A stretch of DNA of 64,000 nucleotides from Prorocentrum cordatum (Eukaryota). Made by a program: the position numbers and the translations under genes. Positions 3,550 to 61,350 of this stretch are shown here, piece after piece. Under the pieces are notes generated by a model. It searched no databases, had not been told where the DNA came from, and saw only the letters and a list, made by a program, of their open reading frames with translations. How positions within the stretch are numbered: the first letter of the stretch is position 1; each line of letters starts with the position of its first letter. The DNA lies in the NCBI GenBank assembly GCA_963575745.1, contig CAUYUJ010000281.1:248001-312000 (forward strand), in the 5' to 3' direction.

Positions 3550-4830
<1,281 letters not shown>

Positions 4831-6189
4831 AGGAGGAGGAGCGGATCGGCTGTCCACGAAAGAGGGCTCCGGCCCGCACTGCCCGGGCGAGCGCGGAGGC
4901 CATTCGAGCCCGACGGCCGAAGTCTGAGGGGCCGAAGCCCCGAGCACAGTTCCGAGACATGGGAAAACACAACATCAAAGAAGCGAATTGATCACTCGAC
5001 TGAGCAGGAGGTTGGAACGACACTTTTTGGATCTGCGGGGCGAGAGCGAACCTCTTCCGCTAAAAGCTAGGCGGGCTACGCACAGCTTTAATTAGGGAGA
5101 CAGGGCACAGGAGGGCGCGGTTGGAGCGACACAAGGGGGGCTTGACTGAAGAGCAGGAGGCGGAGAAGACCACGGCGGCGGCTGAGAAGCGACGCTGCCA
5201 GCCCAAGCGGAGAGGAGCCACCATGGGAAACACGGCCTCCCTTCGCACACGTCTACCAGCCCGACCAGCCGACCACCCTGGTGAATCAGAAGATTCCCCC
5301 ATAACCACCCACAACCATTGAGGCACACCGAACGACGGCCCATCGAAGCGTCACCTCCCTCACGCGGTTCTGATCGCTCCTGCCGACAGCAGACACCACC
5401 TGCGGCCGGCTGCTCCTTCCCACGCCCACACCTCGGCACGATCCTTTTACTAAGCAGCCGCACTCACTGGGCACCTCCACTCCCGTGCCCGGCAGCAACA
5501 ACAGCTGGCCCGCACTGGATACCTACTCTCCGCTCCCACCACCTCGCAGCTCCATGGCGGCGGCGTGCCGCCTCTCCACGAGCCTCCCAAGAGACCCACG
5601 CAATACAGCACTTACCGTGAGCACATCTGCAACACGCCATGCTATGCAGCGGGCCCAAGGCAGCACAAGGCTTCAGAATCAGCCGTGGCTTTCTCACCCA
5701 CGTATGCTGTTCAACTGGATTTGCCGCGATATTGCCATGAGAGGTCCTCGCCCAGCCACCACTCCCTCCCGGCTCACCTTCTTCAGACCCCGTTCCCCCC
5801 CCCCCCCCAAGCTTCACCTGCCCACTCTTGTGGCGGAGGGACGGGTGGGATCACGGGATTACCGGGTGGGGAGGGCGAAGGACACACTCACCACCGGCTA
5901 GTCTGGCGAAAGCTGAGTGCCCGCGGCCGCGCCACCGCCAACTTGCAGCCAGCAGAACCGCCAGCCTGATCGACCTCCAGCTACGTATATTTCGCCTTTC
6001 CTCTGTGGTCTATCCCATGCCATCGCCTCATCGCTGCAGCCCACGCCGCTCTCACCGCGCCGCCTCGCAGCTGCCATCTGTGCAGCCTGCAGCTGTGTCC
6101 ACCGCCCCTCGCGACTCTCAAGGGGAAGGGGGGAGTGGTTTAGATGGGTGTGGGGACGGCTTCGACATAACAGAACAAAAACGCCAGAC

Positions 6190-28834: not shown

Positions 28835-30340
28835 CGTCTCCGCTCGACAAACATAGGCGGCGGCCGACAAAAGACACGGATTCGGCAGCTTTTGCCGAAC
28901 GGGCCGGGTCAATTGAATATTCAAGTGATCTGTGACCTGGCCAATAACCGAACGCCTGTCCCCTTACACAGCCTAACACATGCCCGAATGGACATAACAA
29001 ATAACCGAACCAGAACACTAACACATAACCAAACACACACACAACGCACAACTTACAACATAAGCAAGCATCTAGCCGAACATGCAACTCACGGCGTACA
29101 GACGGGATGAACTAACCTCCAAGACATTACATCACATCAGATAACATACCCTAACACATACCCCCACGCATCACGCATAACCGAACATAATCAGCTACCT
29201 CACACACATCACATAGTCTAGCACATAATCTCACATATAGCACAACCATCTACGCAATAGCTTGCAGCATCTTCGATTGCATTGTGCTACTTTGCGGGGC
29301 TTCGAATGCGATTGCATTGGTTGGTTCTACCTTGCCTCGCTACGTGTTCGCAATCAGTTCCGATGTGCGTTGCCTGCATTGCACTGCGGCGTTTTGTACG
29401 GCTGGGCTGCCACATTCACCAAATCACGCCGAGCTTGGGCCAACGTAGAATATCAATGTAGCCGCCACTTTGTGGCTCAAGCTGGGACTTCTGGCAGCAC
29501 GGCTGCCGCTCGGGAGCCACGGGCACACCTCCAGAGGCGAGCGTCCTCGCCATGGCACGCCGGCTGTTCCCTGCCCCGGCCCCGACCATCCGAGAAGGCT
29601 TGCGCCAGGAAGGCAGCTCGAGAACGCCCTTCTGGCGTGCGACGCGGGGAAGAGGTGCAAATTCAAAGCTGCTTCCGTGACAGACTGCACCATCGGCATG
29701 GCGCAGGCAGTCAAGATGCTCTGGATGGTCCCAACGAGTTCCGCGTCTCGGAGGCGGTGCTTTTTTTTTGGGGGGGGGGGGCGGCGCACTCCGAGGCGGA
29801 CGTGATCACGAAGGCTCTCGAGCTTCTGACGCACCTCCCCTGGGACACGAGCGATGAAATCAAGGAGAATGCCGACCCGACTACAGTCAGCCCGTGTCAA
29901 AAGGATGCGCGGTGAGGAGGCATGGGCCTCAGAGGCCTATGTGAACGCTTCTCGAACGAGGCTGGCCAGCGAAAGTGGCCAAGGATGGGCCGAAGGGGCA
30001 AGGATGCAGGGGTACCCTTGGGAGGGTAGCCCATCCTTCTTATGCGGGCTGGCTGTACCAACAGAACAGCTGAGAATGTTCGGACTGGAGAAACATCACT
30101 GCACCGACCTTGCAGACGTGCTGCAGCGGATTTTTGCGTGGACCTCTCAATGCAAAACCCCGAAATGGCGAGCGAAAAACGAAGTGAATTCCACGTGGAT
30201 TTTGTTAGGCTTCATTCCTGGCCAGACAAAGAATCCGCGAGGAGTTCACGTCGAAATCCGGAGCGACATCCTCCAGGACACTCCGGGCACATCCTGTCGC
30301 TTTTTGAACGAGATCCGCTCTGCGATGCTGGCGCCATGAA
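28835..30340 (+). mobile_element. truncated arm of an element related to the 51791-60123 transposon
   Basis: ccgctcgacaaa...attcggcagcttttgccgaacgggccgggtcaattgaatattcaagtgatc matches the reverse complement of 60020-60115. Followed by cataac/cctaac subterminal repeats and TTGC-rich repeats. Right boundary uncertain. Confidence 0.7.
29458..29481 (+). other. spliced-leader-like motif
   Basis: gtagccgccactttgtggctcaag vs SL GTAGCCATTTTGGCTCAAG; ATG at ~29552. Confidence 0.5.
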
Positions 30341-39550: not shown

Positions 39551-39834
39551 AGGACCAAAAAAAAAAGATCACTTCAAAAATAAAAATAAAAATCAACCCA
39601 CAATAACAAAACAACACACAAAACGAAAAAACAAACACAAAAAAAACAAAAAAACACACAAAAAAACCAAATCAATTTCACACAAAAAAAACAAATCAAA
39701 AAAACATAAACAAACAAAAAGCAAACAAGAAAATACAAACTTACAAGGACACAAGAAAAAATAATTCAAAAAAAAAAAAAACACAAAAAAAACGAAAAAC
39801 AAAAAAAAGAAAAAAAAAAAACAAAAAATCACAA

Positions 39835-42210
39835 ACAGCCACACTCGGACAGAGCCATTGCCGATGGAACAGGGAGTCGGGTTCCCCACACAAAGGACAG
39901 CCCCCCCCGTGGTCATACCCGCACGCTCTCAGCCGATCTCCCGTCCAACAGGCACCTGAAAACACAGCCGAAAGCCAATATTTTTGTCTGGCCGTGGTCT
40001 TACGTGAGCGAAATAACTTAGCGACAGGGTCTGGGCAGACTCTGACATCATTGAAATCATCTAAATCGGTGGCCATCTTGCGCTCAAGGGCTCTCTGCAC
40101 ACCAGCCTCGAGCTGCTTGGCCACTAACGCTGGGGAGGTGTACATTAAATCAACCACGCGATCGCGGTCATCTCTCCACAGCGCAAAATTATCTGCACGC
40201 CACCCGATACGATGGAGGGAGAGGAGCATTCTGTGCACTGGACCTTTAGACTTACGCCAGACAGTGGGGCCTAACTCAGGAGAGGAACTCGATATTGTAC
40301 GCCGTATCCGAATGTGATCCCGAAAAGAGAAGTGGGACACCGTGGGCTCCGTGAGGCTCTGCCAGAGGCTGTTCGACCACTGAAGTGCTGGGGCAACCGC
40401 CTGACGCCACGCAGGGTCTCCATGAAGCACACACTTCGCTGTCAAACTTGCTCCCCGATGGGCAGGAGACTTGCCTGACATAAGCACTGAACGTAAAGAG
40501 GCCAACTCATGATCAGAAGCTCCTAGGACCATGCTGCCGAAACCTGCTGCTGGCCGTACTCCTGCAACATATATCTTGTTAATACGCGTACGGTCCCTGG
40601 GAAGCTTCTTCTTATAGTGCTGGAGTAGTCGGCTACGAATTCGCATATCGTGAAACCGTTGCCGCCGCCGAGCTCTAGCCTTCTTAGCCGATAACCCCTG
40701 ACCAGGTGCTAGGTCCACACCCAGCGACACCGTGGAGTTCGTGGCCGAAGAAGGGCATATTGGCTGAAGTCGCCTGCGCAGCTTGGAAGCTATCCTGCTG
40801 GACGACGAAAAAGATACCGCTTTGTCTTCAGCTAGCCGCACACCTAAACGCGTCTGAAAAAACCCACTTCAAATCTTTCGCAGCCTTGACCAAATCATGC
40901 ATAATAACACTTTCAGGACCATGGGCCGAAACCGTGTCATCGTCGACGTACGATCCCAGACTAACCCCAGGATTCCGGCTAGACCAGAGATCAAACTCGA
41001 ACATCGCGTAAACCTTCACGAAAACATCATTGAAAATGTCCCCTGCTGGTAAACCGTTTTGCGCAAACTGAATAAGCGGGCAGTGATGAGCTCCCAGACG
41101 GAGTACTCTCGGGGACCTCCAGAGGTTGTACAGGACTTTTATGAGAACCGTTGGTATACGCCAGTACATGGCCCGATCCCTCAGCCACAGGAGCCGAAAA
41201 GACTCGTAGTACTTCATACCGTCCCAAATGAAACCTGCCGTGTAATCGCCCTTTTCGGAGGTCTCCTCGGCTCTCACACTTTGTTGCCATATCGATACCT
41301 CTGCAGACTGCCCCGCACCAAAAGCCCAGCAAGGCCGTTGGGCCCGATCCAGGAAGGCATCAGCCTGAGGTCTCCGAAGTCGCTCCCAAACTCGAACAAA
41401 CGATCCCAGAAGAAGAATCGGCCTGAGACCTCCTTTGGGCTTCTCCAGTAAAGGCAGCAGCATCCACAGTAGCTGCGCGGGGAAAAGGCCCAGCCGCTCC
41501 ACGGCCTCGTAGAGCACGGCCAGGCACGTGAGGCCCTCGTCGGAGAGGGCACCAACATGCCGCGGGTGAAATCCATCTAAGCTCTGGGCGGTGTGGCGGC
41601 TGAAGCTCAGAGACGCTTTCCGAAGTTCATCAACGCTGGCCCGAGGGAAACATTGACGATCAGGAATCCAGGCTTCGGGTGGCTTCAAGTCCGCTCCCCA
41701 GAATCTTCCCAAAGTCTGAGCTTCATCCTCCAGAAGGGCATGTGGATCCGCAGTAAATACTCCAGGCGCACTCTGGATAACTGTCGGCTGCCAAACCTTT
41801 TTCAGCTTCGTAAAACGATGCATTATCCGAGCTGAGCCAGCGAGGGCCCGTTCCTGCCAGAGGTCCCACGACTCCCGCTGTATACGATCCCCATCCACCC
41901 CAGCTTGCTCATAATCCTCACGAACATCCTCTAACAACTGCTGAGCTAGCTCAAGCCACCCCTGCCGATGGAAGTTGCTGTGGTGTTGCCAGCTCCTCGC
42001 CAGAGTGCGCATGGCACGGAGGGAGGCATCCAGGCGCACAGACAGGCCTTCGCCAGGGCAGGAGTCCTGGAGCGATACCTGAAGCTGGATGCAACACTGG
42101 ACGGCGTCCTCAGTCGCATCTTGCACCGTCAGGGTAAATTCTTGAAAAGACTGGTACAGCCACCTCCAACCAGCAGCGATCTGGAGCTTATCCTCAGGAT
42201 CCTTCGGGCG
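39835..42210 (-). CDS. LINE ORF2 reverse transcriptase (frameshift near 40840)
   Basis: SLDGFHP, LLEKPKGGLRPILL, IWDGMKYYESF, NGLPAGD, SYVDDDT, SLGVDL, CPLCGEPDSLFHRQWLC. Confidence 0.9.
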
Positions 42211-43240
42211 AACGCTCGCCCAACTCCTTCGGCTCGAAACCTAAAGTGCGGGTAAGCTCCAGCTCAGCGACGTCCACAAACTGCGCCCATGCATTATTCA
42301 AAACCCTCCAGGCCACCGTGGCCTTCTCGTGCATGGCCCAAGCCGCTGCCTGCGCAGCATGAGCAAGAGCGCCTTGCCACGCTGGTGGTTGAGGCCGCGG
42401 TCCAAAAGGCACATCGACAGGTAGACGCTGATAGCTACGGTACACTAGCTGCCTGAGGGAAAGAGCATCTGCACGAACCTTGAGTTGGACAGGTCTGTGG
42501 GGCTTGACGTCCCAAGACATGACAGCTGCAACTCCAGAGATCAATCTAGACAAACCGGGACCCATGACGAAGAAATCTATAATTGTGTTCGTAGACGGAG
42601 TACGACACGTGTGCTCAATCGGCGCCAAAACCAACATCCCCAGCTTGCGTGGAACTCCAGAGGCCTCCAGAACCTGTGGGGTGAGGTTCCAGTCCCCCGC
42701 CAGGATCGTATGAGTTGGGTCATTCACCTGCTTACCTATCTTCGCAATCATCTGTACGTTGGCCTCGCTGAGGCCCTCCGAAGTCTTCAGATAGACCGAG
42801 AAAACCGTCACCGTGGGCCACCCAGGGAAATCCACCAGGACCTTGATCGCTCGTCCAGGAACAACTGGGCCAGGACCTTCTGGAGGCCATCGTAAACCAA
42901 TGCTGAGCCGAGCGAAGACGGCGACACCGCACGAGACCTTGCCCGTCTCTGGGTTCAAGAGCGAGGGGCCGAACAGGGCGTGGAAACCGAGCGAGCGTGC
43001 CGAGGCCGTCGCTTGTCCCAAGAAGGAAACACTGATGCCTATCTCCTGGGCGCACACAATCACCGCCGAAGTCTCTCGTAACCTTCGCCGAAGTGTCTTC
43101 CAACAAGAACCGTTGAAAGTCTCAATAGAAAACGGGTCCCCTCTGGCTACCTTGGGGCCTCCACGCAGAGGTGGCACAGGTACTCCAGCAGAGGACAACG
43201 GAATGCCTGACAAGAGGGGCGCACGGCAGCGGTGAAGGGC
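42194..43240 (-). CDS. LINE ORF2 N-terminal apurinic-like endonuclease (frameshift near 42210)
   Basis: IETFNG, VCAQEI, GVAVFAR, FSVYL, LAGDWN, TCR...IIDFFV, KPHRPVQL. Confidence 0.9.
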   Translation of the reverse strand, partial: ALHRCRAPLLSGIPLSSAGVPVPPLRGGPKVARGDPFSIETFNGSCWKTLRRRLRETSAVIVCAQEIGISVSFLGQATASARSLGFHALFGPSLLNPETGKVSCGVAVFARLSIGLRWPPEGPGPVVPGRAIKVLVDFPGWPTVTVFSVYLKTSEGLSEANVQMIAKIGKQVNDPTHTILAGDWNLTPQVLEASGVPRKLGMLVLAPIEHTCRTPSTNTIIDFFVMGPGLSRLISGVAAVMSWDVKPHRPVQLKVRADALSLRQLVYRSYQRLPVDVPFGPRPQPPAWQGALAHAAQAAAWAMHEKATVAWRVLNNAWAQFVDVAELELTRTLGFEPKELGERSPEGS

Positions 43241-43241
43241 G

Positions 43242-44399
43242 TCACCCGCACCGCTGCTTCTTCGCCCTGATACCGAACTGCTTGAGTAGGTCCGCGACCT
43301 CCCTCCCGTGGTCGGGGCCCTCCTTCCGCGCCGCGGCGATGACCTGCTGCACCTTCTCATCGGAGAGCTCCTCCATGTCCACGTCGTCATCACCAGCACT
43401 GACCTCGGCCGCTTCGGGAGCAGCTCCTGGTACCGCACCATGTCCACCACCAGGAACCCGAGGAGCGGCCTGCTGCTGGTCACGCGCCGCTGCCGCCTTG
43501 GCCGCATAGAGCTCCTTGAACTTGGCGAACTCGGGCGAGGCCAGCATCGTCTTGACCCCATCCGCCTCAGGGCCCTCGAGCACGCTCGGGTCAAGCTCCA
43601 GGTCGACCTCCACCTGCTGCTCGGGGGCCGAGGGCGCCACCTGCTGCATCGCCGCCTGCAGCTCGATCTTGAGTGCACCGATGTCCACGCGCAGGCTGCG
43701 TTGTCGGTCGTTGAGCTCCGCCAACGTCCGCTGCGCCTGCTCCACAACCTTATTCTGCTCCGCAATTGACTTGTCGAGAGCCTCGAACTTCTTCTGCTTG
43801 TCCGCCAGCTTGTGGCCCAACGTGGTGGCACGGGACAACACTGGCTTCTTGGACTGCACCTCCGCTCGCGCCGCCTTGAGCTCACTCTCCACGATCTCAA
43901 TGGCAGACGCTGGTACTCCATCGCACTTACGAAGAGCTTGCAAGGACTCCTCCAAGTGCTGCACTCTAACACGTAGCTTGTCGTCATCCGAAGGCGGTGC
44001 GTCTTGAGATTCGGCGCCACCACCTCCAGCCTGGGCCGAGCCGCCGCCTCCACCTCCGTTGGCCGCGACACCCGCGGGAGGGGACGACTTGGCGGCGACC
44101 TTCTCCATGATGCGCTTCTCCATGGCTGCCAGCTGGCCTGACAGATCGGCTGGGGGGCCCTTGGCCCACGCACCGCGAGGGCCGCGAGGCTGCCCAGGAG
44201 GAACGCCAGGAGGAGCACGAGCCGATGAGCCCAGAGAGGCAGCTGCGGTGCGCGCGCGCTCCACACTTGCCCTCGGGGCTGACTGCCCACAGAGGCACCG
44301 TATCCGACAAGCGAAATTCTGGTTCCTGCCACAACTTGGACACCCCCAGAAGGGCGATCGGGGCCCTGGGAGTACATCCGCCTCATCACGTCGAGCCAT
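43242..44399 (-). CDS. LINE ORF1: RanBP2-type zinc finger plus coiled coil (385 aa)
   Basis: WGCPSCGRNQNFACRIRCLCG followed by a long heptad-rich helical region; ATG at 44399. Confidence 0.85.
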   Translation of the reverse strand: MARRDEADVLPGPRSPFWGCPSCGRNQNFACRIRCLCGQSAPRASVERARTAAASLGSSARAPPGVPPGQPRGPRGAWAKGPPADLSGQLAAMEKRIMEKVAAKSSPPAGVAANGGGGGGSAQAGGGGAESQDAPPSDDDKLRVRVQHLEESLQALRKCDGVPASAIEIVESELKAARAEVQSKKPVLSRATTLGHKLADKQKKFEALDKSIAEQNKVVEQAQRTLAELNDRQRSLRVDIGALKIELQAAMQQVAPSAPEQQVEVDLELDPSVLEGPEADGVKTMLASPEFAKFKELYAAKAAAARDQQQAAPRVPGGGHGAVPGAAPEAAEVSAGDDDVDMEELSDEKVQQVIAAARKEGPDHGREVADLLKQFGIRAKKQRCG

Positions 44400-44519
44400 G
44401 CACAGCACAGCTTGTCTCAGGAAAGTTTGCTCCAGCAGGAGCTCACAAAAGAGATTCCGAGCCACAAAGACCCGCAGGAGCGGCTGCCGCTCTGAAGACA
44501 GCTCCTGCAAGCCCAAAAA

Positions 44520-44536
44520 CTTGGGCCAGAACGGCT
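44520..44536 (-). other. spliced-leader-like sequence at the exact 5' end of the LINE
   Basis: AGCCGTTCTGGCCCAAG vs SL AGCCATTTTGGCTCAAG (14/17), abutting the TSD. Confidence 0.7.
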
Positions 44537-45289
44537 GATGAGGAGGAGGAAGAGGGAGGAGGGGGGAGGAGGAGGGAGAAGGATGGATGAAGAAAGAAGG
44601 ATGGAGAAGGCGGAGGAACATAGCGGAACGTGCTGGCAATCACAGTCGTGCAGAAGAGGAGGAGGATGAGGAGGAGTAGGAGGATCGATCGATCGAGCGA
44701 GCGGGCAGTCGGGTCGAGATCGGGGATACTTCGCGTCGGCAAGAGCGGCATAGCTGCGACATATTAGAATGGTCTTTCTGTGCCGACTGTGTAGGAGGAC
44801 TCGCTGGCGCTACTCGCCGCCCTGTCCCTACGCCGACCTTCTCCACGCAGGGGTAGTAGACAGAGGGGGGAGGAGGAGGAGGAGGAGGAGGAGGAGGAGG
44901 ACATCACACACGTTTTCTAGGACCGTCTGATACTCGCCTCTTGTATCCCGAGAGCATCCTGAACGCCAAAGAAAGCATCAAGGCCCGCTCAAGAGAGCCC
45001 CCGAAGGCTTCCTTGAGCGGCCCTGGGAGGCCGCCGCGGCCCCCAAGAAGCCCCCAACAAAGGGACCTCGAGTAGCAATTCCGGACCCTCCACCCCAAGA
45101 TGGCCGCGGACAGAGCTTGCCGCGCGCCCCTCGTGTCAAACTGTTGCGCCCGGGACGCTCGCGGTGGCCGCGCGCGCTCCCCCGGACAGAACGTATCACA
45201 GCCCAGTCGTGTTCACGTGTCGTGCCATCGGCCCACGGCGCGGGCACCGTGGCGGGATGAGCCGGAGGCCATGGTAAGCACACGGAAGA

Positions 45290-46891: not shown

Positions 46892-47908
46892 TCACTGGGG
46901 GGTTCTGGGCGGCTGCCTGCGCTCGGGCGCTCGGGACCAGTGGGCCGCCTCCGCGTCCTCCGCGGGGCGGGCGCAGCGCACCCCCACGTGGTGCGCTGTG
47001 CTCTCCGCGGAGAGGTGGCTGCGGGCGCAGATGCGGTACCTCCAGCAGTAGGACTTGTGGCACATGAAGGAGCCGCCCTTCTTGACCTTCTCGAACTGCC
47101 CGGACCCGTCCCTGCTCATGTAGCCCATCTCCACGACCTGGTCGAGCTCGTCGACTGACGGTCCGAGAGGGTCGACGAAGCCAGTGGCCTGGGTCTCCTC
47201 GGTCAGGAAGTGCACCGGTGTGAACCAATCACCGACCCATTCCCACACATTGCCGACCATGTTGTACAATCCCCAGTCGTTTTGTGGGCCGTATGCGTCC
47301 ACGGGGGCAGTTTTAATCCACTTGTCCTTTGCCGTATTTGACGTTGGGAAAGTGCCCTGCCATATGTTCATCCGGTGCTTCTTTGGATCGCCATATGTGA
47401 GGTTCCCCCAAGGGTACAAATTCGGACTGCTCGAGCTTCCGTGCGCCGCGTACTCCCACTGCGCCTCAGATGGCAGCGACGCGTTTCGCCATCGGCAATA
47501 GGCGGTGGCATCGTTCCAAGAAATATGCACGACTGGATGGTTCCACCTATCACCGAAACGGCTGCGCTCCCCATCCAGACCACTGTCTAAACCCTCAGGC
47601 GTCCTCCACGTAGCATTCTTCACGGGAAGCCACCAAGGGACAGCGGCGACTTTGACATCAACCGTGCGCGATACGGCTTCTGAAAGATATAGCTCAGCTA
47701 CAAAGGAATCCCCGAACAACTCTGCCTCGGTCACATGGCCCGTCTCCTCCACGAACTCTTGAAACTTCCTGTTGCTGACCTCGAACCGATCCAGCCGGAA
47801 GCCCGACATCCTCACTTGTCGCAGCGGGCCCTCCCCGTCCTGCCTGAAGTGGACTCGCTCCTTCTCGATGCCCATCGGGAAGCGTCCCGCGGGGATGTCC
47901 ACCATGTC
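46892..47908 (-). CDS. SUMF1: formylglycine-generating enzyme (FGE-sulfatase domain, SUMF1-like); probably one long exon lacking the N-terminus
   Basis: IPAGRFPMG, DGEGP, FEVSN, HPVVHISWNDATAYC, LPSEAQWEYAA, YPWGN, NIWQG, GLYNMVGNVWEWVGDW, KKGGSFMCHKSYCWRYR (both catalytic Cys), GVRCA. Candidate acceptor CAG|G at 47909. Confidence 0.92.
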   Translation of the reverse strand, partial: DMVDIPAGRFPMGIEKERVHFRQDGEGPLRQVRMSGFRLDRFEVSNRKFQEFVEETGHVTEAELFGDSFVAELYLSEAVSRTVDVKVAAVPWWLPVKNATWRTPEGLDSGLDGERSRFGDRWNHPVVHISWNDATAYCRWRNASLPSEAQWEYAAHGSSSSPNLYPWGNLTYGDPKKHRMNIWQGTFPTSNTAKDKWIKTAPVDAYGPQNDWGLYNMVGNVWEWVGDWFTPVHFLTEETQATGFVDPLGPSVDELDQVVEMGYMSRDGSGQFEKVKKGGSFMCHKSYCWRYRICARSHLSAESTAHHVGVRCARPAEDAEAAHWSRAPERRQPPRTPQ

Positions 47909-47925
47909 CTGGATTAGACGCCTCC

Positions 47926-48170
47926 TAGATGGGGTCGGTGTGGATGTGGTCGGAGGATCGCGCCGCATCGCCGATACGTCGGCGATGCATCGGCGATGCA
48001 TCGGCGATGCATCGGCGATGCACTGGCGATGCATCGGTGACGTCGGCGATGCATGGGCAACGTCGGCATGGAAAACAGTGGGCTCCACATCGAGCCGAAT
48101 CGCCGATGCATCGCCGATGCATCGGAGATGCGGCGCGATCCTCCGACCCCATCTACTCTGACTCCATCTA
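47926..48170. mobile_element. palindromic MITE (TAGATGGGGTCGG termini; internal GATGCATCGGC repeats)
   Basis: Over 40 bp of imperfect TIR; second copy at 30760-30940. Confidence 0.8.
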
Positions 48171-50404: not shown

Positions 50405-50504
50405 NNNNNNNNNNNNNNNNNNNNNNNNNNNNNNNNNNNNNNNNNNNNNNNNNNNNNNNNNNNNNNNNNNNNNNNNNNNNNNNNNNNNNNNNNNNNNNNN
50501 NNNN
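50405..50504. other. assembly gap (100 N)
   Basis: Run of N between (GAG)n and (CCT)n tracts. Confidence 1.
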
Positions 50505-51790: not shown

Positions 51791-51899
51791 CCCTCAAGCC
51801 ACCGTTCGACAAAAAAACAATCCATAGAAATGGCCGCATTCGGCAACTTTTGTCGATCGACCACTTTTTGTTGAATTCGACAGGTGTTTGTCGAATGGA

Positions 51900-52060
51900 G
51901 GGGTTGGCGGTTAGGTTACTTGTCAAGGCAATTCTGTTAGTTGTTAGGTTGTTTGTTGGGTTTGTTAGGTTATGGGTTAGGTTGTTTGTTAGGTCCGTTA
52001 GGTTACTCGTTAGGTACGTTCGGTTAGGTCCGTTCGGTTAGATCTGTTCTGTTAGCCTGT
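51900..52060 (+). repeat. left subterminal 12-bp repeats (GTTAGGTT core)
   Basis: gttaggttgtttgttggg...gttaggttatgggttaggttgtttgttaggt. Confidence 0.8.
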
Positions 52061-52317
52061 TTGTGGCTGTGTCGCCGTGAGCGTGTTATCCGGAATGTCT
52101 TACAACATATTCGCAGTTGACATGGAAGCCTCGAAAGATTGACGTCTTGAGGGGGCGCAGTGCGTGTCAGTTCCGTGTCGGCCTTGAGGGGTTGACTTCC
52201 TGAGGGAGCGCAGCGTGGAACACACTCTCAAGACAGGAGGCCAGGAGAGGGGATGAGGAAGAGAGGGGTTTGGACGGCGGTGGAGTATAGTTTTGTCCAA
52301 AGGATTGATTTCAGCTC

Positions 52318-54000
52318 TCACTCCAATGCAACAAAATATGTTGCAATCGTTTGGTTACCTACTTGCAACGCCTGCGATCGTTTTGTACAGCTGAACATCA
52401 GACGACGAATTTCCTGCATGAGGTCTTCCCCTCTGTAACACCACAACCGCCGCGGCGATGACTCGAGTAGACAGCAATGCAACAGAAAATGCGCATCAGA
52501 AACGCATGGCAGGTGTTTGCAATGTATTCCCTCACGTCCCGTGGCACGCAGAACGACGTCGTATCTACGGAGTCGATTTTCTCATCTAAGAGAACATTCA
52601 GATGCAGCAGCAACCTGATCTTTGAATATACACCCGCTCGGTTGCCAGCGCGTTTATCCCATACTTTCAAAAGTACTGGGCCCAGACACTTGATTTCCGC
52701 AGCCTTGCCCCTCAAATCGCCTTTGGCTTTGAGGCTAAGCATTGGCAATTTCAGAATGCTGAACCTGGTCTTCACCTTATCAGATGTGTACAGCTCGAAA
52801 ACTTCGCCTTGCAATTTCTCCAAATTTTCCTCGGGCGATCCGCTCATCACGTAGTGGGCCAACGCGTGCAGCGCTGATCCGAGGAGCCTCTTGTCTAACC
52901 CTAAGTGTTTCACGTGCGTCCAGTCTGAAGCGACTGTCAATATGGATACGCCTGGTAGCTGAAACAAAGGGTTGCACGCATCCATTCCTAGAGCTCTCCA
53001 CTGGGCCTCTGTGAAGACATCCTGGACCCACGCTGACTTCGGTCTAAAGCCGCACCACGGCATTGTACTGTCATTACACGGGCACCACGCGCAAGGCTTT
53101 GATAACGCATTGCAGTTTGGCAAACCAATACATTTCCACAAGTAATCCATATCGCCGACCAAACCCCATAGGCAAGCAAAGTGGCCACCAGCCAGATCGC
53201 CACGCTGTGACCATGGCGGCGTAGCCACACCATTTTCATCAATATCTGGCCATGTGCCTTCCCACGACGCTTCCAACGACCATTTCATTTTCTGGAAAAT
53301 TGTGTCAACGTCTTGACAGCATTTGAAGACGCCTGAAGGCCAGCTCAATAGGTCCGGTGGCCACTAACGATGGCCACGACCAGATACCGGACAATTTCCC
53401 CCATGAGTTCCCTAATCCTGCCACAGGAGTTCCGTCACCGTGAATTGATATAGGAACAGCAAGCCGTTCATGATGTCTGCGAAAACGAATCGCATGATTC
53501 CGATAGTGTTTCGATCTTTGATGGCAGCCCAAAGCTTACGCAGACATGCGATGGAAGGGGCACACAATTTGTTCCCATGCTTTTGGGTTCTCGTTGCACA
53601 TCTCGGCGAATAAAACATGCGACCACAAACCGTCCAGATCCTTGCAATGAAATCCAACTCTGCCTGCTTTCAGGGTCGCTTTGAACGGTGAGGGCTTGAG
53701 TGCAGACACAGGCGAGAACTTGTTCATAAGTTGTGAATGCATGTGTTGCGGGTTTCGCCCATGTGTTCCGAGCCCAGACAAACACCGAACATCGGCAACA
53801 TCCAGCGTGCCTTGCGCGCAGGCCTCCAGGTCCTGCCGAGCAAGCGTCGCAATGATCTGGACCTGCCGAGGCGACATGCGCCCCCACGCCCATTCCTTCA
53901 CCAGGAAACTCGCCGCGGCACTTTGCACGAGCGCCGCGGCCGCGGCTTGCTGAGCCCTCGCCCTTCGCTGGCGGCAGCCGCCGCGGCGCCCGAGGTTCTC
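52318..54000 (-). pseudogene. CMC/CACTA(Plavaka)-like DDE transposase, frameshifted
   Basis: Across frames: ISIHGDG (D), GLVGDMD (D), PCAWCPC, DWTHVKHLG (DxxHxxxLG), HFLLH...PRRLWCYRGEDLM (H..LH...W..E), stop at 52318. Breaks near 53535, 53345 and 52500; 5' boundary approximate. Confidence 0.7.
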
Positions 54001-54750
54001 CGCTACTCGACGCCGAGTGCTGCGGACTTGTTGCTTGAGTGGGCGCAAGGAGCCACAGCGCACGCGAGAAATCGAATCCAGCGCCGGGGGAGGAGTAACG
54101 TCACATTAGAAAGCCACGCGCCAATGTCCACCGTGCTTCCCTGATGACACTAGGCACTCCCGGCGCACCTTCAAGTCGCTCTCAAGACACTCTCAGGACA
54201 CTCTCAAGACCGCTCGCTCTCAAAACTCTGAAGACACAAAACAAAAAGGGATGAGAGGAGGAGGGGGGGAGGGGAGGGGGGGAAGGAAGAGGAAGACGAG
54301 TAGGCCGCAAGGGGGGCGCATAGCACGGAAAAGGAATGCCTTGTTTTACTCTCAACCGCGCCGTGCCAGATGTCTCAGCAACGCAGATCAGCTCGGCGCG
54401 CGGACGTAGAACAGAGCAGGAGTGGCATCGGAATATGTTCTGGATTTGAGTTTGTTTTAGTTGTTTGTTTTGGAGGGGTCCTGATGGTTAATATCAGATC
54501 TGGCCGGATGAAACCAAACGGGGGTCTGCCTGTAGCCTGGGTCAAATTCAGGCCCGAATAACACGCAAAATACGTTGCCGAGGATCATTGCCCCTCGGCA
54601 GCGTGATTCCTTTGTGTTTGTGGGGTGAAAGCAACCCTGGCCCCTCCGAAAAAGGCTCTCCTTCTCCTCCTCCTCCTTCTCCTCCTCCTCCTCTTCCTCC
54701 TCCTCGTCGCCCTCCTCCCCCCCCCCCCTCTTCCTTGTGTAGAAGCACGG

Positions 54751-55872
54751 TCACTTCGCGAACTTCTTGGCGAGACCCATCGCCTTCTTCAGCGCCTCGC
54801 AGTCCATCGCGCGCGCCTTGAGGGCCTCCTGCGCGGCAGAAACCATCAGCTTCGAGCTGTCCGCCGCTGTCCTGAAGCGAAACATCTTCGACGGCGTATT
54901 CTTGTCCGCTGAGCAGGACTCGAGCGCGACCTCCAGCTCGTCTTTGATCGACGCCGCGGCGCATGGAACTCCATGCTGCATCATTTTGTCGAACATCTTC
55001 TCACCGTCTGCGAGGAGCTTCTCGAGGATGCAGATGGCCTGGGACAGTTTGTCGATCGCCTTGTCGGGCGCCTCATATGAGACGGCGACATGGCGCTGCT
55101 CCTTCTTCGACAGATGGAACTTTTTAGCCTGCTCTGGAGTGACGTCCTTTCCGACTATCAGCTTGCCCTTGTCCTTCGCGTCCTGGCGCGCGCCAGTCTT
55201 GATGGTGCGGATCGCGCAGTAAACGACGCCGTCAACTGTCCACTCCTGGACCCCCCCTGCCTCGATGGCTCGATCGAGACCCGCTTCTCCATCTCTGAAC
55301 TTCTCGACCATGACAGACCGTGGAATTCCTGCCGAAGAGTCTTCTCCGAACTTGGTCTTGACCTGGTCGATCTCCTTCGTGTACCAAGGGCTGTCCAGCT
55401 TCAGGACAAGCTTGCCGTTCTCCTTGTTGAAGAGGTTGTTGACAATCTCTGTCTCCCTGGCGCGCTTCCCAGAAGCGTGCGAAGACGCGTCGCCCCACAT
55501 CTTCTGAACCTGCGGTGGCAACTGGCCCTTGAGCTGAAGAAACTTCCTCATCTTGGGCTGCGACCTTGCCTCGTTGGGATCGGATCCTGCAGCCGCCGCG
55601 GGCCTCTTCGCGGGCGCCGCCGCCGCCGGCTTCCTCATGGGCGCCGCAGCGGGCCTCCTCATGGCCCCCAGCTGCATCCGAGGAGCGCGAGCAGCAGGCC
55701 TCATTTTAAGTGGACGTCCGGCCTCGTCATCGACCTCTGGTTCCTCGTTGCCGGCCCCCTCCTCCCCTGGGCCCTTCTGCGGAGCTTCCACGTCGGACCC
55801 CTGAAGACCTTCTTGCCTGATGTGGCCGCAGAGAGACTGCATCTCATCGAACTTGCTTAGTTTCTTTGCCAT
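54751..55872 (-). CDS. intact 373-aa uncharacterised transposon accessory protein with (K/R)RPAA repeats and helical C-terminus
   Basis: Uninterrupted ORF with GC-biased third positions and normal complexity; MRPAA/RRPAA/RKPAA/KRPAA motifs. Confidence 0.75.
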   Translation of the reverse strand: MAKKLSKFDEMQSLCGHIRQEGLQGSDVEAPQKGPGEEGAGNEEPEVDDEAGRPLKMRPAARAPRMQLGAMRRPAAAPMRKPAAAAPAKRPAAAAGSDPNEARSQPKMRKFLQLKGQLPPQVQKMWGDASSHASGKRARETEIVNNLFNKENGKLVLKLDSPWYTKEIDQVKTKFGEDSSAGIPRSVMVEKFRDGEAGLDRAIEAGGVQEWTVDGVVYCAIRTIKTGARQDAKDKGKLIVGKDVTPEQAKKFHLSKKEQRHVAVSYEAPDKAIDKLSQAICILEKLLADGEKMFDKMMQHGVPCAAASIKDELEVALESCSADKNTPSKMFRFRTAADSSKLMVSAAQEALKARAMDCEALKKAMGLAKKFAK

Positions 55873-55960
55873 CTGTCTTCCTTGGAAGACCTGCTCACAC
55901 AAAGAGTTCGTAACACTGCAAGAGGAATGTCGACTCCGCACCAGCAAAGAGACTACGCAG

Positions 55961-55980
55961 CTGGGCCAAATGTGGCACGG
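55961..55980 (-). other. spliced-leader-like motif upstream of the KRPAA ORF
   Basis: CCGTGCCACATTTGGCCCAG vs CCGTAGCCATTTTGGCTCAAG; ~90 nt before the ATG. Confidence 0.5.
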
Positions 55981-56084
55981 CGACGAAATTCACTGCCCTC
56001 GAGTAGTCTACGCTGCTCCCCTACTGTCCCTCTCTCCTCTCCTCATCCCTGCTCCCCTCTCACCTTGCAGCACCACCCCGCGCG

Positions 56085-56290
56085 ATCTAGTTTCGATCTA
56101 GTTTAGATCGAAACTAGATGTTCGAATGATCTAGTTCTCATCTAGTTCTGAGCGAATTTCAATCTAGTTGTCACTGTGCATTGCGAGGGGCCGTTCGTTT
56201 TACCAAATTAGATCAAACTTGGAGCGGTGCTGGACCTCAGCTGGACCGACTGAAAATCTAGTTTCGATCTAGACTAGATCGAAACTAGAT
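56085..56290. promoter_or_regulatory. two near-identical perfect hairpins (ATCTAGTTTCGATCTA arms)
   Basis: 56085-56119: 16-bp stem, 3-nt loop. 56256-56290: 17-bp stem, 1-nt loop. Regulatory role is inference. Confidence 0.45.
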
Positions 56291-57364
56291 CGTTCGAAAA
56301 CCTACCTTCGAATGAGATCACCAACAAAAATGATAGGACGATGCTGGTTCCCACGTTCGCGCTCACCTCACCCCGCGCACGAGTGATAGGTAGCCCCGGA
56401 CAAATATAACATTTGTGGCTGATCGCCGACGGCTGAAAGCTGGCAGGGCGCCTGCAAGTCCCAACGCGCGGCCTGCTGCAAGGGAGATTGTTCATGTGCC
56501 TAACCATCGTTGATGATAGTATCTACGACAGGCTTTGGGCTGCTGCTGCTGCTGCTAACTGCTTTTGTGTCGGGTGGCACTGCAGAGCGAAAGCGGTTGC
56601 CCTTCTTGAGTTTGGGAGGCCATCTCCCTGTCGGGCATTTCTTTCCCAGCGCGCGCCTTGCAGGTCGAAGTGGTTTCCTCGGGGTGTCGTTGCAGTTCGC
56701 GCCAAGTGGATCCAGGTTCGGGTCGTAGCTACAAATGCTGGGCGCCGCGAACAGATCCCCAAGTTTCTGAGTCACAGGCCCCCTCGGAATCATAATGCCC
56801 ATCCAAGGTGCGAAGCCCATGCCACTCTGCGAGCGCGCCGATTGGTCCACCATTGATCTTCAAACTACCCGTCTGATGAATTGGAAGGATCCGCGACAAC
56901 AAATTTGGCGGGAGACTCGGCCTCGAAAGACACTGCAACGGAAAACCACATGAGCGTTTCTGAAGGATGGTTCCAGGGATGTTCCAGGAGTGGTCGACAT
57001 GGATCTTTGAGGAATGTTCCAGGGAGTGGTGGGGCGGAAAACCACCCAAAGATGATCAGGCGAATTTCTAGACACTTCCTACGGAGATTCGTTTTGTTTT
57101 TTTCTGGCTGAGGCCCCTTGGGGGCTCGTCGTCAAGTCGACTCCCTCCTACCACCACCGCGATCACCAGCCACGAATCCTCAAAAACCACGACGGTATTT
57201 CACGGCACTTTTTCGCCCCAAAAGCGTTCCTTGACATGCCGGCCATTTTTTGGCCGATCCAGACACCTCGCACTCTCAAGACGCCCCTCTCTCTCAAGAC
57301 ATCACTCTCTCAAGACGTCGCTCTCTCAAGACAGGCAACGGAGGGGGAGAATAACTTTTTTAAA

Positions 57365-57982
57365 TCAAATTTCCTCGAACGACTCCGCGATCGACGCGCG
57401 GATGGAGGCAATGGGCGCCTCACCCTGCGCAGGCGCATCTTCTGGCCTTGGCGGACAGCTTGCAGGCGAAGAACTGCCCGCAGCTTGCGGACTCTGCCCG
57501 CAGCTTGCAGACGAAAAACTGCCCTGCGCCGCACTCTGCCCACAGCTTGCAGACGAAGAACTGGCCCTTGTCGGCGGCGCCCCCTGCTGGCCTTGGCCGG
57601 CGGCGCACCCTGGCCTGGCCTTTGTCGGCGGCGCACCCTGCTGGCCTTCGTCGGTGGGTGGCGTCTTGCGCTTCGTGAGCGGCTGCATCTTCGCGAAGTT
57701 CATCGGCAGCGGGCGCGGCCCGACAGCGGGCGGGGCGATGCCGCTTCGCGCAACGCATTCTGCAGCAGCCTCCACGGTGTCGAACGTGATGAACGCCACA
57801 ACCGTTTTGCTCTGTGCCTGCGCACCGCGTCGGACGATGTAGATGTCCTGAACGCCCCGGACGCCGACATCCTGCGACTGCGCCGCCAGAAGGGCCTTCG
57901 CGCAAGAGAAAGGCAGCTGGCCCACGAACGCCTTCTTCCTGTCGCTAGGACATGAAAGCGGAGGCGCGCGCGCCTGGGCCAT
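57365..57982 (-). CDS. single-RRM RNA-binding protein (205 aa) with repetitive C-tail
   Basis: KAFVGQLP (RNP2), VQDIYIVR, VAFITFDTVEAAAECV (RNP1 and helix), PLPMNFAK (last strand). Confidence 0.8.
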   Translation of the reverse strand: MAQARAPPLSCPSDRKKAFVGQLPFSCAKALLAAQSQDVGVRGVQDIYIVRRGAQAQSKTVVAFITFDTVEAAAECVARSGIAPPAVGPRPLPMNFAKMQPLTKRKTPPTDEGQQGAPPTKARPGCAAGQGQQGAPPTRASSSSASCGQSAAQGSFSSASCGQSPQAAGSSSPASCPPRPEDAPAQGEAPIASIRASIAESFEEI

Positions 57983-58011
57983 CGCCGCGCACTGGTATCG
58001 CGGCGAAACCG

Positions 58012-58034
58012 CCCGAGCCAAAATGGCTGCACGG
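58012..58034 (-). other. spliced-leader-like motif ~30 nt upstream of the RRM ATG
   Basis: CCGTGCAGCCATTTTGGCTCGGG; a 14-nt exact match AGCCATTTTGGCTC plus the leading CCGT. Confidence 0.85.
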
Positions 58035-58340
58035 CACTGAGGGATGAGAACACCATTCTGACTGGAAGCGAAAGGGGGGCATGGGGGGCGAAACGTGTCA
58101 GGGGTCGTGAACCATGTCAGGCAAGTCCCAGTCCAGTTTCGATCTAAACTGAATCTGCCTACCATCAAGTTCTGATCCAGTTTAGATCAAACTCAAACGC
58201 TGCAAAATCAAATCGTGATCTAGTTTAGATTCAATCTCAATCAAACGTCGATCGTTTGGATCTTGGGGTCCTCTTGGGATTCTGAAGTTTTTTGTTTTAC
58301 CCTAGAAGGATTTACGTATTTCTGATGTCTTTGTTGTTTA

Positions 58341-58419
<79 letters not shown>

Positions 58420-58915
58420 TTCTCTGGATATGCCGCTGGGGTCCTCTGAAGCGATGGCGTTTTGTGGCTTCTCGAGTGGCTTGTGCATTTAGTACGCTTT
58501 GAGGTGTCAGAGCTAAGGCTTTGCCGTTCTGCGCTCAACTTTGCATTGGCTTTTGAACCTACATCCATTCCAACGGCAACCCGTTGTTCTCTCAAGACGT
58601 TGCTCTCTGCTGGCAGGGGGGGAAAGGAGAGAGGTAGGACAGAGGGGCGTTTTTCTGTGAAGACTCCTCCCTCTCTCAAGACAAAGCCTGGAGGTGGGGC
58701 GAGATGATAATGATGTTGCTGACTATGTTGGTGGAGATGGTGATGTGTATGATGATGAACGTGATAGCATTTCGCACAGCTGAAGATGCGATGCCCGAGG
58801 GATGCTGTAAACTGCGGTGCTAGCTACCCACATAGCTTAATACATAAACAAAGTTTCACGAGCATTGAACCCATGCGCAGATGCACTGTGCCGAAGAGAT
58901 TTGTGTGGCAGCCGT

Positions 58916-59431
58916 CTACGAGCCGCGCTTCTCCTTGCACGTGGAGCAATGGCCCTTCCAGCGGCATTTGGAGCACCCCCATCCGTTGTCACGGTACTGC
59001 TGGCAGAGCGCACCGGTCTCTGGCTTCCAATAATTGTTCTTGCTGTTGCCGCAGGGCGTGGGCTCGCCCTCGTCACCTGCGGAGCCCGCGTCGGCGAGGG
59101 GTGCCACGGGCTGGCTGGCGACTGGCGCCGCCTCGAGGGGCAGAGGAGCTGACTCTGGCTGATCTCTGCCGATCGCTGCGGCATGGGGTTTGGCCTTCGC
59201 CTTCGCCTTGCCTTTTGCCTTGGCTATGCCCCTGCCCTGGTTGCCCTTGCTCGCACCCTTGCTCTTCTTTCCCTTGCCCTTGCCGCCACCACCCTTGCCT
59301 TTACCTTTGGCCTTCTTGGCCTTCATCGGCTTCATGATGCGAAGTGGCTTTGTAGAAGGATCCTTGCTACCCTCCATGACTACAGAGAACATGTCCCCGT
59401 CGAGGTCAGTGACACCTCGCGGCCGCTTCAC
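58916..59431 (-). CDS. small Lys/Gly/Ala-rich basic protein with C-terminal CxxC-x5-CxxC motif
   Basis: MKPMKAKKAKGKGKG...KAKGKAKAKAK; GCSKCRWKGHCSTC. First in-frame ATG at 59392; an out-of-frame ATG at 59460 may be the original start. Confidence 0.65.
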   Translation of the reverse strand: MKRPRGVTDLDGDMFSVVMEGSKDPSTKPLRIMKPMKAKKAKGKGKGGGGKGKGKKSKGASKGNQGRGIAKAKGKAKAKAKPHAAAIGRDQPESAPLPLEAAPVASQPVAPLADAGSAGDEGEPTPCGNSKNNYWKPETGALCQQYRDNGWGCSKCRWKGHCSTCKEKRGS

Positions 59432-59476
59432 CTGCGAGGATCCCGGCGAACGGAAGTCATACTTCCGAACAAACTA

Positions 59477-59506
59477 CCTGAACCATACAAAAACTCAATG
59501 GCTACG
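59477..59506 (-). other. split spliced-leader-like motif upstream of the basic-protein ORF
   Basis: CGTAGCCATT (10-nt exact SL 5' part) + gagtttttgta + TGGTTCAGG (SL 3' part TGGCTCAAG-like). Confidence 0.55.
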
Positions 59507-59814
59507 TTGTGACGGAACGTCGGTCCCGTGCTGGGCGCGATGCTGGGAACACGTCAGCCATTCAATAAAAATCCCAGTCATTGGGTTTCACTGATACATG
59601 CTAAATTGCGCGAGCAAAAAAAGAACAACGACTATGACCACAATCCAGGGTGGAACACCGCAACGCAACACACTGTAACGCAACGCGATGCAATATCTTA
59701 CGTTGTGTGATGTATGACGCGTGAGTTGTGTTGTTACAGCTGTATACAATATGATGAAAGTTCGGTCCACCTTTTGCGTTCGTTTCCAGCGTTTCCGTGG
59801 CACTTGTTGCTGTA

Positions 59815-60020
59815 GTTGGTTAGGTGTCATGTTATCGGTTAGGTTACCTGTTAGGTTATATGTTAGGTTATTTGTTAGGTTATATGTTAGGTTATGTGTT
59901 AGGTCATTTGTTAGGTAATGTGCGAGATTATTTGTTAGGTCCATTAGGTTATTTGTTAGGTAAATTAAGTTATTTGTTAGGTTGAGAGAAAAGTTCGCCG
60001 TTAGGTTGTTTCTTAGGTTC
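59815..60020 (+). repeat. right subterminal 12-bp repeats (GTTAGGTTATTT)
   Basis: gttaggttatatgttaggttatttgttaggttatatgttaggttatgtgttagg... Confidence 0.85.
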
Positions 60021-60165
60021 CGGATCAATTGAATATTCAATTGATCCGGCCTATTCGACAAAAACTACCGAATTTGACAATGTTTGTCGATCGTTCTTTT
60101 TTTGTCGAACGGTGGCTTAAGGGCTCCCCCTCCTCCTCCTCCTCCTCCTCCTCCTCCTCCTCCTC

Positions 60166-60564: not shown

Positions 60565-61350
60565 GAGAGCTTAGCGGGCCCTGGAAACGACAGGGCTTTT
60601 TACCGGTTCCGTTTTGCCGTTTTTGTTACCGGTTCCGACGCCGTTGTTTTACCGGTTCCGTCGCCGTTGTTTGACCGGATCCGGCTCCGTTTCCAATCCC
60701 GGAGCCGTTTTTTTGGCCGTTTCCGGTCGACGTTTTTTTGCCGTTTCCATTTTCAATGGACATTTTTCTGGAAACGTTGAAAAAACGGCCCTGCCGTTTC
60801 CGGGGCCCACAAAGCTCTGGAGGCCCCCTTCGGGACCTCGCGAGGCGGCCTTCTACGGGAGGCTGGTTTACTCCCTGGTGGCTTTCCTGAGCTTCGCTCC
60901 TCCTCATCCTTTTTCCTCGACCTCATCCTCACCCATTGAACCAGCAATCTCGCGCTCTGGAGCTTAGTGGGCCCTGGAAGCGACAGGGCCGTTTTTTTAC
61001 CGGCTCCATTCTGCCGCTTTTGTTACCGTTCCGACGCCGTTGTTTCACCGGTTTCGTCGCCGTTGTTTTACTGGTTCCGGCTCCGGTTCCAATCCTGGAG
61101 CCGTTTTTTGGCCGTTTCCGGTCGCCGTTGTTTTGCCGTTCCCATTTTCAATGGACATGTTTCTGGAAACGTTGAAAAAACGGCCCTGCCGTTTCAGGGG
61201 CCCACAAAGCTCTGGAGGCCCCCTTCGGGACCTCGCGAGGCCGTCTTCTACAGGAGGCTGGTTTACTCCCCAGTGGCTCTTCTGAGCGTCGCTCCTCCTC
61301 ATCCTGGCTCCTCGACCTCATCCACTTCCAACGACACGCCCTCACCCCTT
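60565..61350. repeat. tandem duplication of a ~395-bp unit (MITE with AGAGCTT..GGGCCC TIR plus ~140 bp flank)
   Basis: 60566-60958 and 60959-61350 are colinear; TIR agagcttagcgggccctggaaacgacagggc / gccctgccgtttccggggcccacaaagctct. Confidence 0.85.

Follow-up and report, generated by a model that had tools for sequence, protein, structure and literature searches.

The locus described here raises the question of how a sequence that belongs to mRNAs only came to stand ahead of genes in a cut-and-paste DNA transposon. The stretch analysed is 64,000 nucleotides (nt) long and comes from Prorocentrum cordatum (assembly GCA_963575745.1, contig CAUYUJ010000281.1, positions 248,001 to 312,000 of the forward strand); it is referred to below as the window. 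The element in question occupies positions 51791-60123 (8333 bp), is bounded by terminal inverted repeats (TIRs) and lies inside a (CCT)n tract. Two of its open reading frames (ORFs), ORF A and ORF B, and a further gene, gene C, are each preceded by a motif resembling the dinoflagellate spliced leader (DinoSL). We give slightly better than even credence to the reading that these motifs are decayed relict DinoSLs, left by mRNAs of the element whose reverse transcripts were inserted back into it or into its ancestor.

Dinoflagellate mRNAs receive the 22-nt DinoSL by trans-splicing. The leader sequence printed in PMC2606063 was used as the reference. Retrogenes bearing relict DinoSLs are attributed to Slamovits and Keeling (2008), as cited in PMC5585692 and PMC6050394. 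In the passages of these sources drawn on here, relict DinoSLs were reported <=500 bp upstream of >20% of genes in two Symbiodiniaceae genomes, on a 9-mer criterion (Song et al. 2017, PMC5585692). The same paper proposes the TTT(T/G) core as a promoter and places the best-kept relicts at -50 to -100. Retrogenes are described as tending to land near their parents, and they may keep introns (Song et al. 2018, PMC6050394).

Leader-like motifs ahead of three genes

The motif before ORF B (57365..57982, minus strand; 205 aa from the ATG that follows the motif) is a near-complete relict DinoSL. It is present at 58012..58035 on the minus strand and agrees with the leader at 20/22 positions, with a 2-nt insertion. 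The D position of the leader is represented by G, followed by CCGT, the two extra nucleotides, the exact 14-mer AGCCATTTTGGCTC (58015-58028), and GGG replacing AAG. The edit distance over the full length is 4 of 21. Because the motif carries the insertion, an ungapped search with the DinoSL 21-mer, allowing <=3 mismatches, found zero sites in the window. The motif is followed, after 29 nt, by the ATG at 57982, and the frame of ORF B is open through the motif as far as an ATG at 58165. The site is no SL RNA gene, in which a GT donor and an SL intron come after the leader exon, often in arrays with 5S rRNA: it is CGG, not GT, that follows the motif, and an Rfam search of the whole window gave 0 matches.

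Gene C (54751..55872, minus strand; 373 aa, intact) is preceded by a degenerate SL-like motif at 55961..55981 on the same strand, with 17/21 matching positions, an edit distance of 5 and a longest exact run of 6. The end of this motif lies 88 nt from the ATG at 55872. The motif before ORF A (58916..59392, minus strand; 158 aa) is split, and is located at 59477..59506 on the minus strand. It consists of CGTAGCCATT, which is an exact 10-mer, then 11 nt, then TGGTTCAGG, which matches at 7/9 positions; its local score is 20, and 84 nt separate its end from the ATG at 59392. Each of the three motifs is in the sense orientation of its ORF and keeps a TTTG or TTTTG run. Under the published exact 9-mer criterion (<=500 bp upstream, sense strand), the 14-mer of ORF B and the 10-mer of ORF A count as relict leaders and the motif of gene C does not.

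An earlier reading of this DNA from its letters alone (the sequence-only reading) had proposed that each accessory ORF of the transposon has such a motif before its first in-frame ATG, and that the transposase has none. The three sense-strand motifs were found where that reading had placed them; they are DinoSL-like, and their distances of 29 to 88 nt from an ATG are those of relicts in a 5' untranslated region. The wording was too wide in two respects. Motifs precede ORF A, ORF B and gene C, but the ORF at 56500-56853 has no leader motif ahead (lenient score of 5.5, which is background). For ORF B, which has the in-frame ATG upstream, placement before the first in-frame ATG applies downstream of the motif only. 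The lack of a motif ahead of the transposase was confirmed, with a lenient score of 6.5 that is also background.

The flanks of the three motifs are mutually unrelated: the scores between them are attained in 112 to 500 of 500 shuffles. Three different 5' regions therefore carry the same 21 nt, which is the outcome that trans-splicing produces. A single duplicated 'leader module' behind the three motifs was also considered, and was ruled out by the unrelated flanks.

At an edit distance of 4, two sites were found in the window (58012-58035, and 40068-40088 on the plus strand), whereas 100 dinucleotide shuffles averaged 0.14 and none of them reached two. As a control for placement, 2/128 ATG-initiated ORFs (>=100 aa, outside the element) had a score >=18 within 150 nt upstream, one of them the ORF of a long interspersed nuclear element (LINE). 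The lenient scores of 10 (ORF A), 15.5 (ORF B) and 11 (gene C) are matched by 0.9%, approximately 0.1% and 0.4%, respectively, of random 150-nt pieces of the window (approximately 4000 draws). Motifs before 3/5 element genes at a background of 2/128 would arise by chance at approximately 4 in 100,000, a value uncorrected for post hoc choice. The motifs are real but unequal: that of ORF B is strong, and those of ORF A and gene C are weak individually. The latter two are lifted above chance by their placement, not by window-wide frequency.

The carrier transposon and a distant relative

The stretch is a TIR-bounded DNA transposon with a RAG1-fold transposase, and this copy is dead. The 30-nt arms of the TIRs, at 51791..51820 (left) and 60094..60123 (right), have (CCT)n directly outside and are complementary at 28/30 positions (93%). 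With (CCT)n on both flanks, the target-site duplication is unreadable. Dating of the relics by the TIR mismatches (2/30) was dropped, as the arms were possibly non-identical at insertion. Units of the TTTGTCGAA type and 12-nt repeats of the GTTAGGTT type are present within both ends of the element. A perfect 30-nt palindrome, CCGGATCAATTGAATATTCAATTGATCCGG, was noted at 60020-60049, just inside the right end and beside the GTTAGGTT-type 12-nt repeats (59806-60027); repeats of this type are also present at 51928-52026, in direct and not inverted orientation. The sizeable ORFs of the element are all on the minus strand.

The transposase is a pseudogene (52306..53988, minus strand) that aligns colinearly, in frames -2/-3/-2, with P0012, a protein of 610 aa. 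It contains one in-frame stop (53536-53538) and two frameshifts, and no intervening segments. The transposase ORFs of the window match P0012 with an E-value of 3.8e-72. The family includes 1530 cluster representatives at E<=0.001 and 65 at 1e-30. No Pfam match beyond noise was found for the window pieces, for pieces of a related metagenome locus (L001, described below) or for eight family members, and the family profile had 0 matches among PDB sequences. An AlphaFold model of P0012, made with 40 relatives, had a pLDDT of 93.0 and a pTM of 0.90. The best Foldseek matches to this model were RAG1 core chains (E 5e-7, TM score of 0.44-0.48), followed by the amphioxus RAG-like protein BbRAGL, HzTransib and the P element transposase. 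In the alignment of 40 relatives, D192, D307, E569, C326-x2-C329 and H546-x3-H550 are invariant or near-invariant (D192, D307 and E569 at >=90%), and the window transposase shows the motifs HGDG, GDMDY and RGED. D192/D307/E569 and the C/H residues may be counterparts of the acidic triad and the zinc ligands of RAG1. The TIRs and the broken transposase substantiate the DNA transposon that the sequence-only reading had described.

The DNA read contigs (three runs, 80% likeness) comprised source-like contigs with 0 differences and one diverged relative (3802 nt, depth of 17.5). The diverged contig matches patches of the transposase, of gene C and of a palindromic cluster, with no cover in the bin 57948-58231.

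Gene C belongs to a conserved dinoflagellate family. Seven relatives (226-394 aa), which include several P. cordatum copies, show BLASTP identities of 39-64%, and gene C aligns with them over its whole length, initial Met and final residue included. The AlphaFold model of gene C (eight sequences) had a pLDDT of 49.8, and no likeness to RAG2 was demonstrable in it. The gene C alignment gave 95 pattern matches and no relative among viral contigs, and no usable match was present in the structure atlas. Among metagenome contigs, the alignment identified one locus, L001 (8242 nt, GC content of 0.44). This locus contains a gene C relative and then a transposase relative on one strand, matching the gene order of the window with protein identities of 35 to 45%, and is a distant relative, not the parent, of the window element. 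As the order of gene C and transposase is kept in L001, gene C is an old gene of the element and not a recently captured host mRNA.

Compared with the window, gene C in L001 has approximately 500 extra nt between two aligned blocks, and the L001 transposase is split, at two places that are uninterrupted in the window, by approximately 300 and 200 additional nt. From this sequence comparison, gene C and the transposase of the window look processed, and gene C underwent, at the most, a rewriting from its own mRNA. No significant leader motif was found ahead of gene C in L001 (score of 8, reached by 8.9% of random pieces). Ahead of the L001 transposase there is only the 9-mer TGGCTCAAG, 23 nt before the ATG (3.7% of random pieces).

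The genes of the element are followed by repeats. Two GTCTTGAGAG motifs are present downstream of ORF A (58589..58682, minus strand), four exact copies begin 33 nt past the stop of ORF B (57273..57332, minus strand), two exact copies and three with one mismatch lie between gene C and the transposase (54179..54235, minus strand), and one lies downstream of the transposase (52225..52234, minus strand). All of the exact copies of GTCTTGAGAG in the window (9/9) are within the element, on the minus strand. In L001, TCTTAGAGAG repeats are present after each of three ORF ends, at 446-496, 5063-5106 and 8101-8110 (plus strand) and at 4669-4768 (minus strand), and the repeat motif has 11 sites by exact count. 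On their sequence and position, GTCTTGAGAG and TCTTAGAGAG may represent a family-specific 3' motif, perhaps a 3'-end or boundary signal.

A palindromic cluster of GATCTAGTTTNGATC units is located at 56084..56291, approximately 100 nt upstream of the gene-C motif. A second, more worn GATCTAGTTTNGATC cluster is located at 58141..58231, approximately 100 nt upstream of the ORF-B motif. The 11-nt unit occurs at these two places only, with 11 matches compared with 0.18 expected. In L001, a 360-nt palindrome of a different unit (840-1200) lies approximately 490 nt ahead of gene C. The palindromic clusters may serve as promoters or binding sites, or may be small nested elements.

ORF A encodes a Lys/Gly-rich protein with a Cys-rich C-terminus, and a possible upstream exon is present at 59514-59561. 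No Pfam family was identified for it. Among candidates of one length class, its only relative was an 88-aa EukProt protein, P0009, which is identical to the window at 88/88 residues: residues 1-16 correspond to 59561->59514 and residues 17-88 to 59473->59258. By this mapping, P0009 skips a 40-nt GT..AG piece (59474..59513, minus strand) that contains the whole ORF-A motif. Without splicing, the upstream frame is closed by a stop codon within the motif. Most simply, the piece may be a very short intron, and P0009 may be a transcript, a gene model or another allele. If the piece is an intron, that message does not begin at the motif and its mature form lacks it. The abrupt end of P0009 in a low-complexity stretch suggests that it is a contig fragment. 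The EukProt set from which P0009 comes is labelled as a green alga; it also contains P0010, which matches the frameshifted tail of the window's transposase ORF without a difference, and P0164, a gene C relative that clusters with P. cordatum proteins. This set is likely to be mixed or mislabelled material.

ORF B has a weak match to an RNA recognition motif (RRM_1; E 0.0038, 17.5 bits, under the cut-off of 20.7), and lies between the two clusters of the same palindromic unit. No relative was found among 1233 candidates of one length class, and there is no counterpart in L001; ORF B may have been captured from a host mRNA.

The window is GC-rich DNA of nuclear type (GC content of about 0.6) and contains microsatellites, and among named organisms the closest relatives of its proteins come from P. 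cordatum. The LINE lies at 39741-44537 on the minus strand and has an APE endonuclease domain (E 2.5e-6; 42194-44386) and a weak zf-RVT match under the cut-off. Its 5' end is a truncated leader-like 17-mer, AGCCGTTCTGGCCCAAG, directly after (CCT)n and 135 nt before the ATG at 44386. Two other leader-like sites with a local score of 24 each were noted on the plus strand: 40068-40088 (edit distance of 4), which is antisense within the LINE, and 29464-29481 (edit distance of 5). An intact ORF with an FGE-sulfatase domain (E 1.1e-65) is present at 46892-48034 on the minus strand, with a weak leader-like site approximately 1 kb upstream at 49022 (score of 17). A 227-nt direct repeat (92%) lies just beyond the element (60709-60935 and 61104-61330), and an assembly gap of 100 N is present at 50405-50504.

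Origin of the motifs

In the account based on recycled messages, the element would be transcribed, and each of its mRNAs would gain the leader by trans-splicing. A reverse transcriptase would copy the capped mRNAs; a LINE with what may be a leader relic of its own is 7 kb away. The cDNA would return at or next to the parent gene, erase the intervening segments and leave the leader at the 5' end. The relic would be carried along by the element and would then decay. Present transcripts would start, or be trans-spliced, further upstream, with the relic as plain 5' sequence, and in gene A the relic would be removed within the 40-nt GT..AG piece. We infer every RNA and cDNA step of this account from features that are observed in the DNA, namely the motifs and their placement, the anatomy of the element, the fold of the transposase, the gene order, the missing segments and the skipped 40 nt.

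The account is favoured by the ORF-B motif, with its 20/22 positions and 14-nt core, and by the presence of three sense motifs 29 to 88 nt before an ATG with unrelated flanks. It is also favoured by gene C and the transposase, which are contiguous in the window and interrupted in L001, and by the leader-like 5' end of the LINE.

Several findings weigh against it. At an edit distance <=5, four sites were found in the window compared with 2.08 expected, and 14/100 shuffles reach four, which puts the gene-C motif at chance window-wide. The same holds for the ORF-A motif, as five sites have a local score >=20 compared with 2.30 in shuffles; at a score >=18, there are 12 sites compared with 8.95. 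The shuffle scoring that the sequence-only reading had suggested as a check thus separated the motifs, with ORF B above chance (2 vs 0.14) and ORF A and gene C at chance window-wide. The motifs of ORF A and gene C were also selected post hoc. No poly(A) remnant with a target-site duplication, and no shared word >=8 nt, was found around any cassette, and the sole long A run (A11, 58379-58389, after ORF A) is inside a (GA)n tract. The lack of poly(A) and duplication would be expected for old events or for cDNA-mediated conversion. The transposase is also free of intervening segments and yet has no motif, so that a leader-bearing cDNA is not needed to explain the absence of segments; a gain of the segments in the L001 lineage is equally possible. 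The mRNA-like P0009 continues for >=48 nt on the 5' side of the skipped piece, and the ORF-A motif is therefore not at its 5' end. Among the DNA read contigs, there was no second family copy spanning the motifs.

A broader form of the recycled-message account is tentative and, in our estimation, doubtful. Large RAG1-fold DNA transposons of dinoflagellates might have a mixed DNA/RNA economy, in which the leader relics would be entry scars of retro-capture into standard cassettes, a route by which a cut-and-paste element could acquire genes and rewrite them. The cassette itself, as a part of the same proposal, is held just as tentatively: it would consist of the upstream palindromic cluster, the leader region, the ORF and the 3' TCTT(A)GAGAG repeats, in a layout shared by distant relatives, and new or refreshed genes would enter it as leader-capped cDNAs. 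Within this proposal, the relics may double as start-site motifs.

The alternative that survives best, although we consider it unlikely, is that a true relict stands before ORF B alone, from one retroposed mRNA that landed in the element or was picked up by it, and that the motifs of ORF A and gene C are due to chance. In shuffles, local scores from 18 to 20 and an edit distance of 5 are indeed as common as in the whole window, as given above. ORF B, which has no relatives, is absent from L001 and is flanked by the two palindromic clusters, resembles an added block, and the ORF-A motif needs an 11-nt insertion and sits in the spliced-out piece. However, both weak motifs are in sense orientation and fall <=150 nt ahead of a start that is genuine or plausible; the start of gene C is confirmed by its seven relatives. 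With single-window chances of 0.4 to 0.9% and 2/128 control ORFs scoring >=18, both motifs would be due to chance at approximately 1 in 5000, uncorrected for post hoc choice.

It is improbable that the motifs are cis elements derived from the leader, such as the TTT(T/G) core as a basal promoter or start site, that have been kept for the expression of the genes. This promoter function has been proposed for relict DinoSLs in general (PMC5585692); the analysis places the three motifs within the -50 to -100 range, each with TTTG or TTTTG, and TGGCTCAAG precedes the L001 transposase. Against this, no significant motif is present before gene C in L001, and none before the window transposase or the ORF at 56500-56853. 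Two of the motifs carry indels that break the leader, and two of the three are heavily decayed. P0009 extends upstream of the ORF-A motif and skips it, which places the start of that transcript elsewhere. What the window does share with L001 is different: the 3' TCTT(A)GAGAG repeats and an upstream palindromic cluster. The kept leader mimic of the sequence-only reading is disfavoured by the same findings: the decay of two motifs, the lack of a significant motif before L001 gene C and the skipping of the ORF-A motif in P0009.

Stepwise assembly of the element from retroposed host mRNAs, with each cargo gene a captured host retrocopy, is very unlikely: the ORFs share one strand, leader-like 5' ends are present in three of them, and ORF A and ORF B have no counterpart in L001, but the order of gene C and transposase is kept there, gene C relatives are multicopy in a dinoflagellate genome, every cassette ends with the element-specific GTCTTGAGAG, unlike host 3' ends, and no host parent was found for ORF A or ORF B. 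The serial assembly from retroposed mRNAs that had been proposed from the letters does not stand as worded, since the gene order in L001 marks gene C as a long-standing member of the family.

Comparison with known systems and meaning

The motifs resemble those of relict-DinoSL retrogenes ('mRNA recycling') in that a sense copy of the leader, truncated or mutated, lies within approximately 100 nt before the start of genes without intervening segments. They differ in that they are inside a TIR transposon, that at least one of the genes, gene C, belonged to the transposon ancestrally, that neither a parent copy nor poly(A) nor a target duplication was seen, and that one motif is in a spliced-out piece. 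For the leader-headed LINE in the window, which replicates through RNA, a leader at the 5' end follows from the life cycle; a cut-and-paste element, in contrast, has no RNA step of its own.

Among known systems, the transposase stands nearest to those of RAG1, RAG-like ProtoRAG and Transib and of the wider CMC group (EnSpm/CACTA). The element shares with RAG1, ProtoRAG and Transib the fold seen in P0012, the TIRs and an accompanying conserved second gene. Unlike RAG1 and Transib, the family has no Pfam or PDB sequence match, and this copy is a pseudogene. Pack-MULEs, Helitrons and CACTA elements capture genes at the DNA level, keeping introns and fragments. The extra ORFs without an evident role in transposition (ORF A, ORF B and 56500-56853) are similar to such captured genes, whereas the ORFs of this element are uninterrupted and headed by a sequence found only in mRNA.

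In the literature searched, within the parts covered of sources that include PMC8045281, PMC5585692, PMC7245778, PMC10666404 and PMC6050394, no relict leaders were described ahead of DNA transposon genes. Relict leaders are an accepted footprint of cDNA return in dinoflagellates, and have so far been described for host genes. The signature at this locus is mostly an ordinary one, with an unusual carrier. If the reading of the motifs as recycled messages is true, cDNA recycling would also rewrite genes within cut-and-paste elements, and transposition would spread the intron-free copies. A multi-copy family with shared or differing states of the relics could then be used to date recycling events relative to transposition events. 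The two main engines of dinoflagellate genome growth would, on that reading, become linked.

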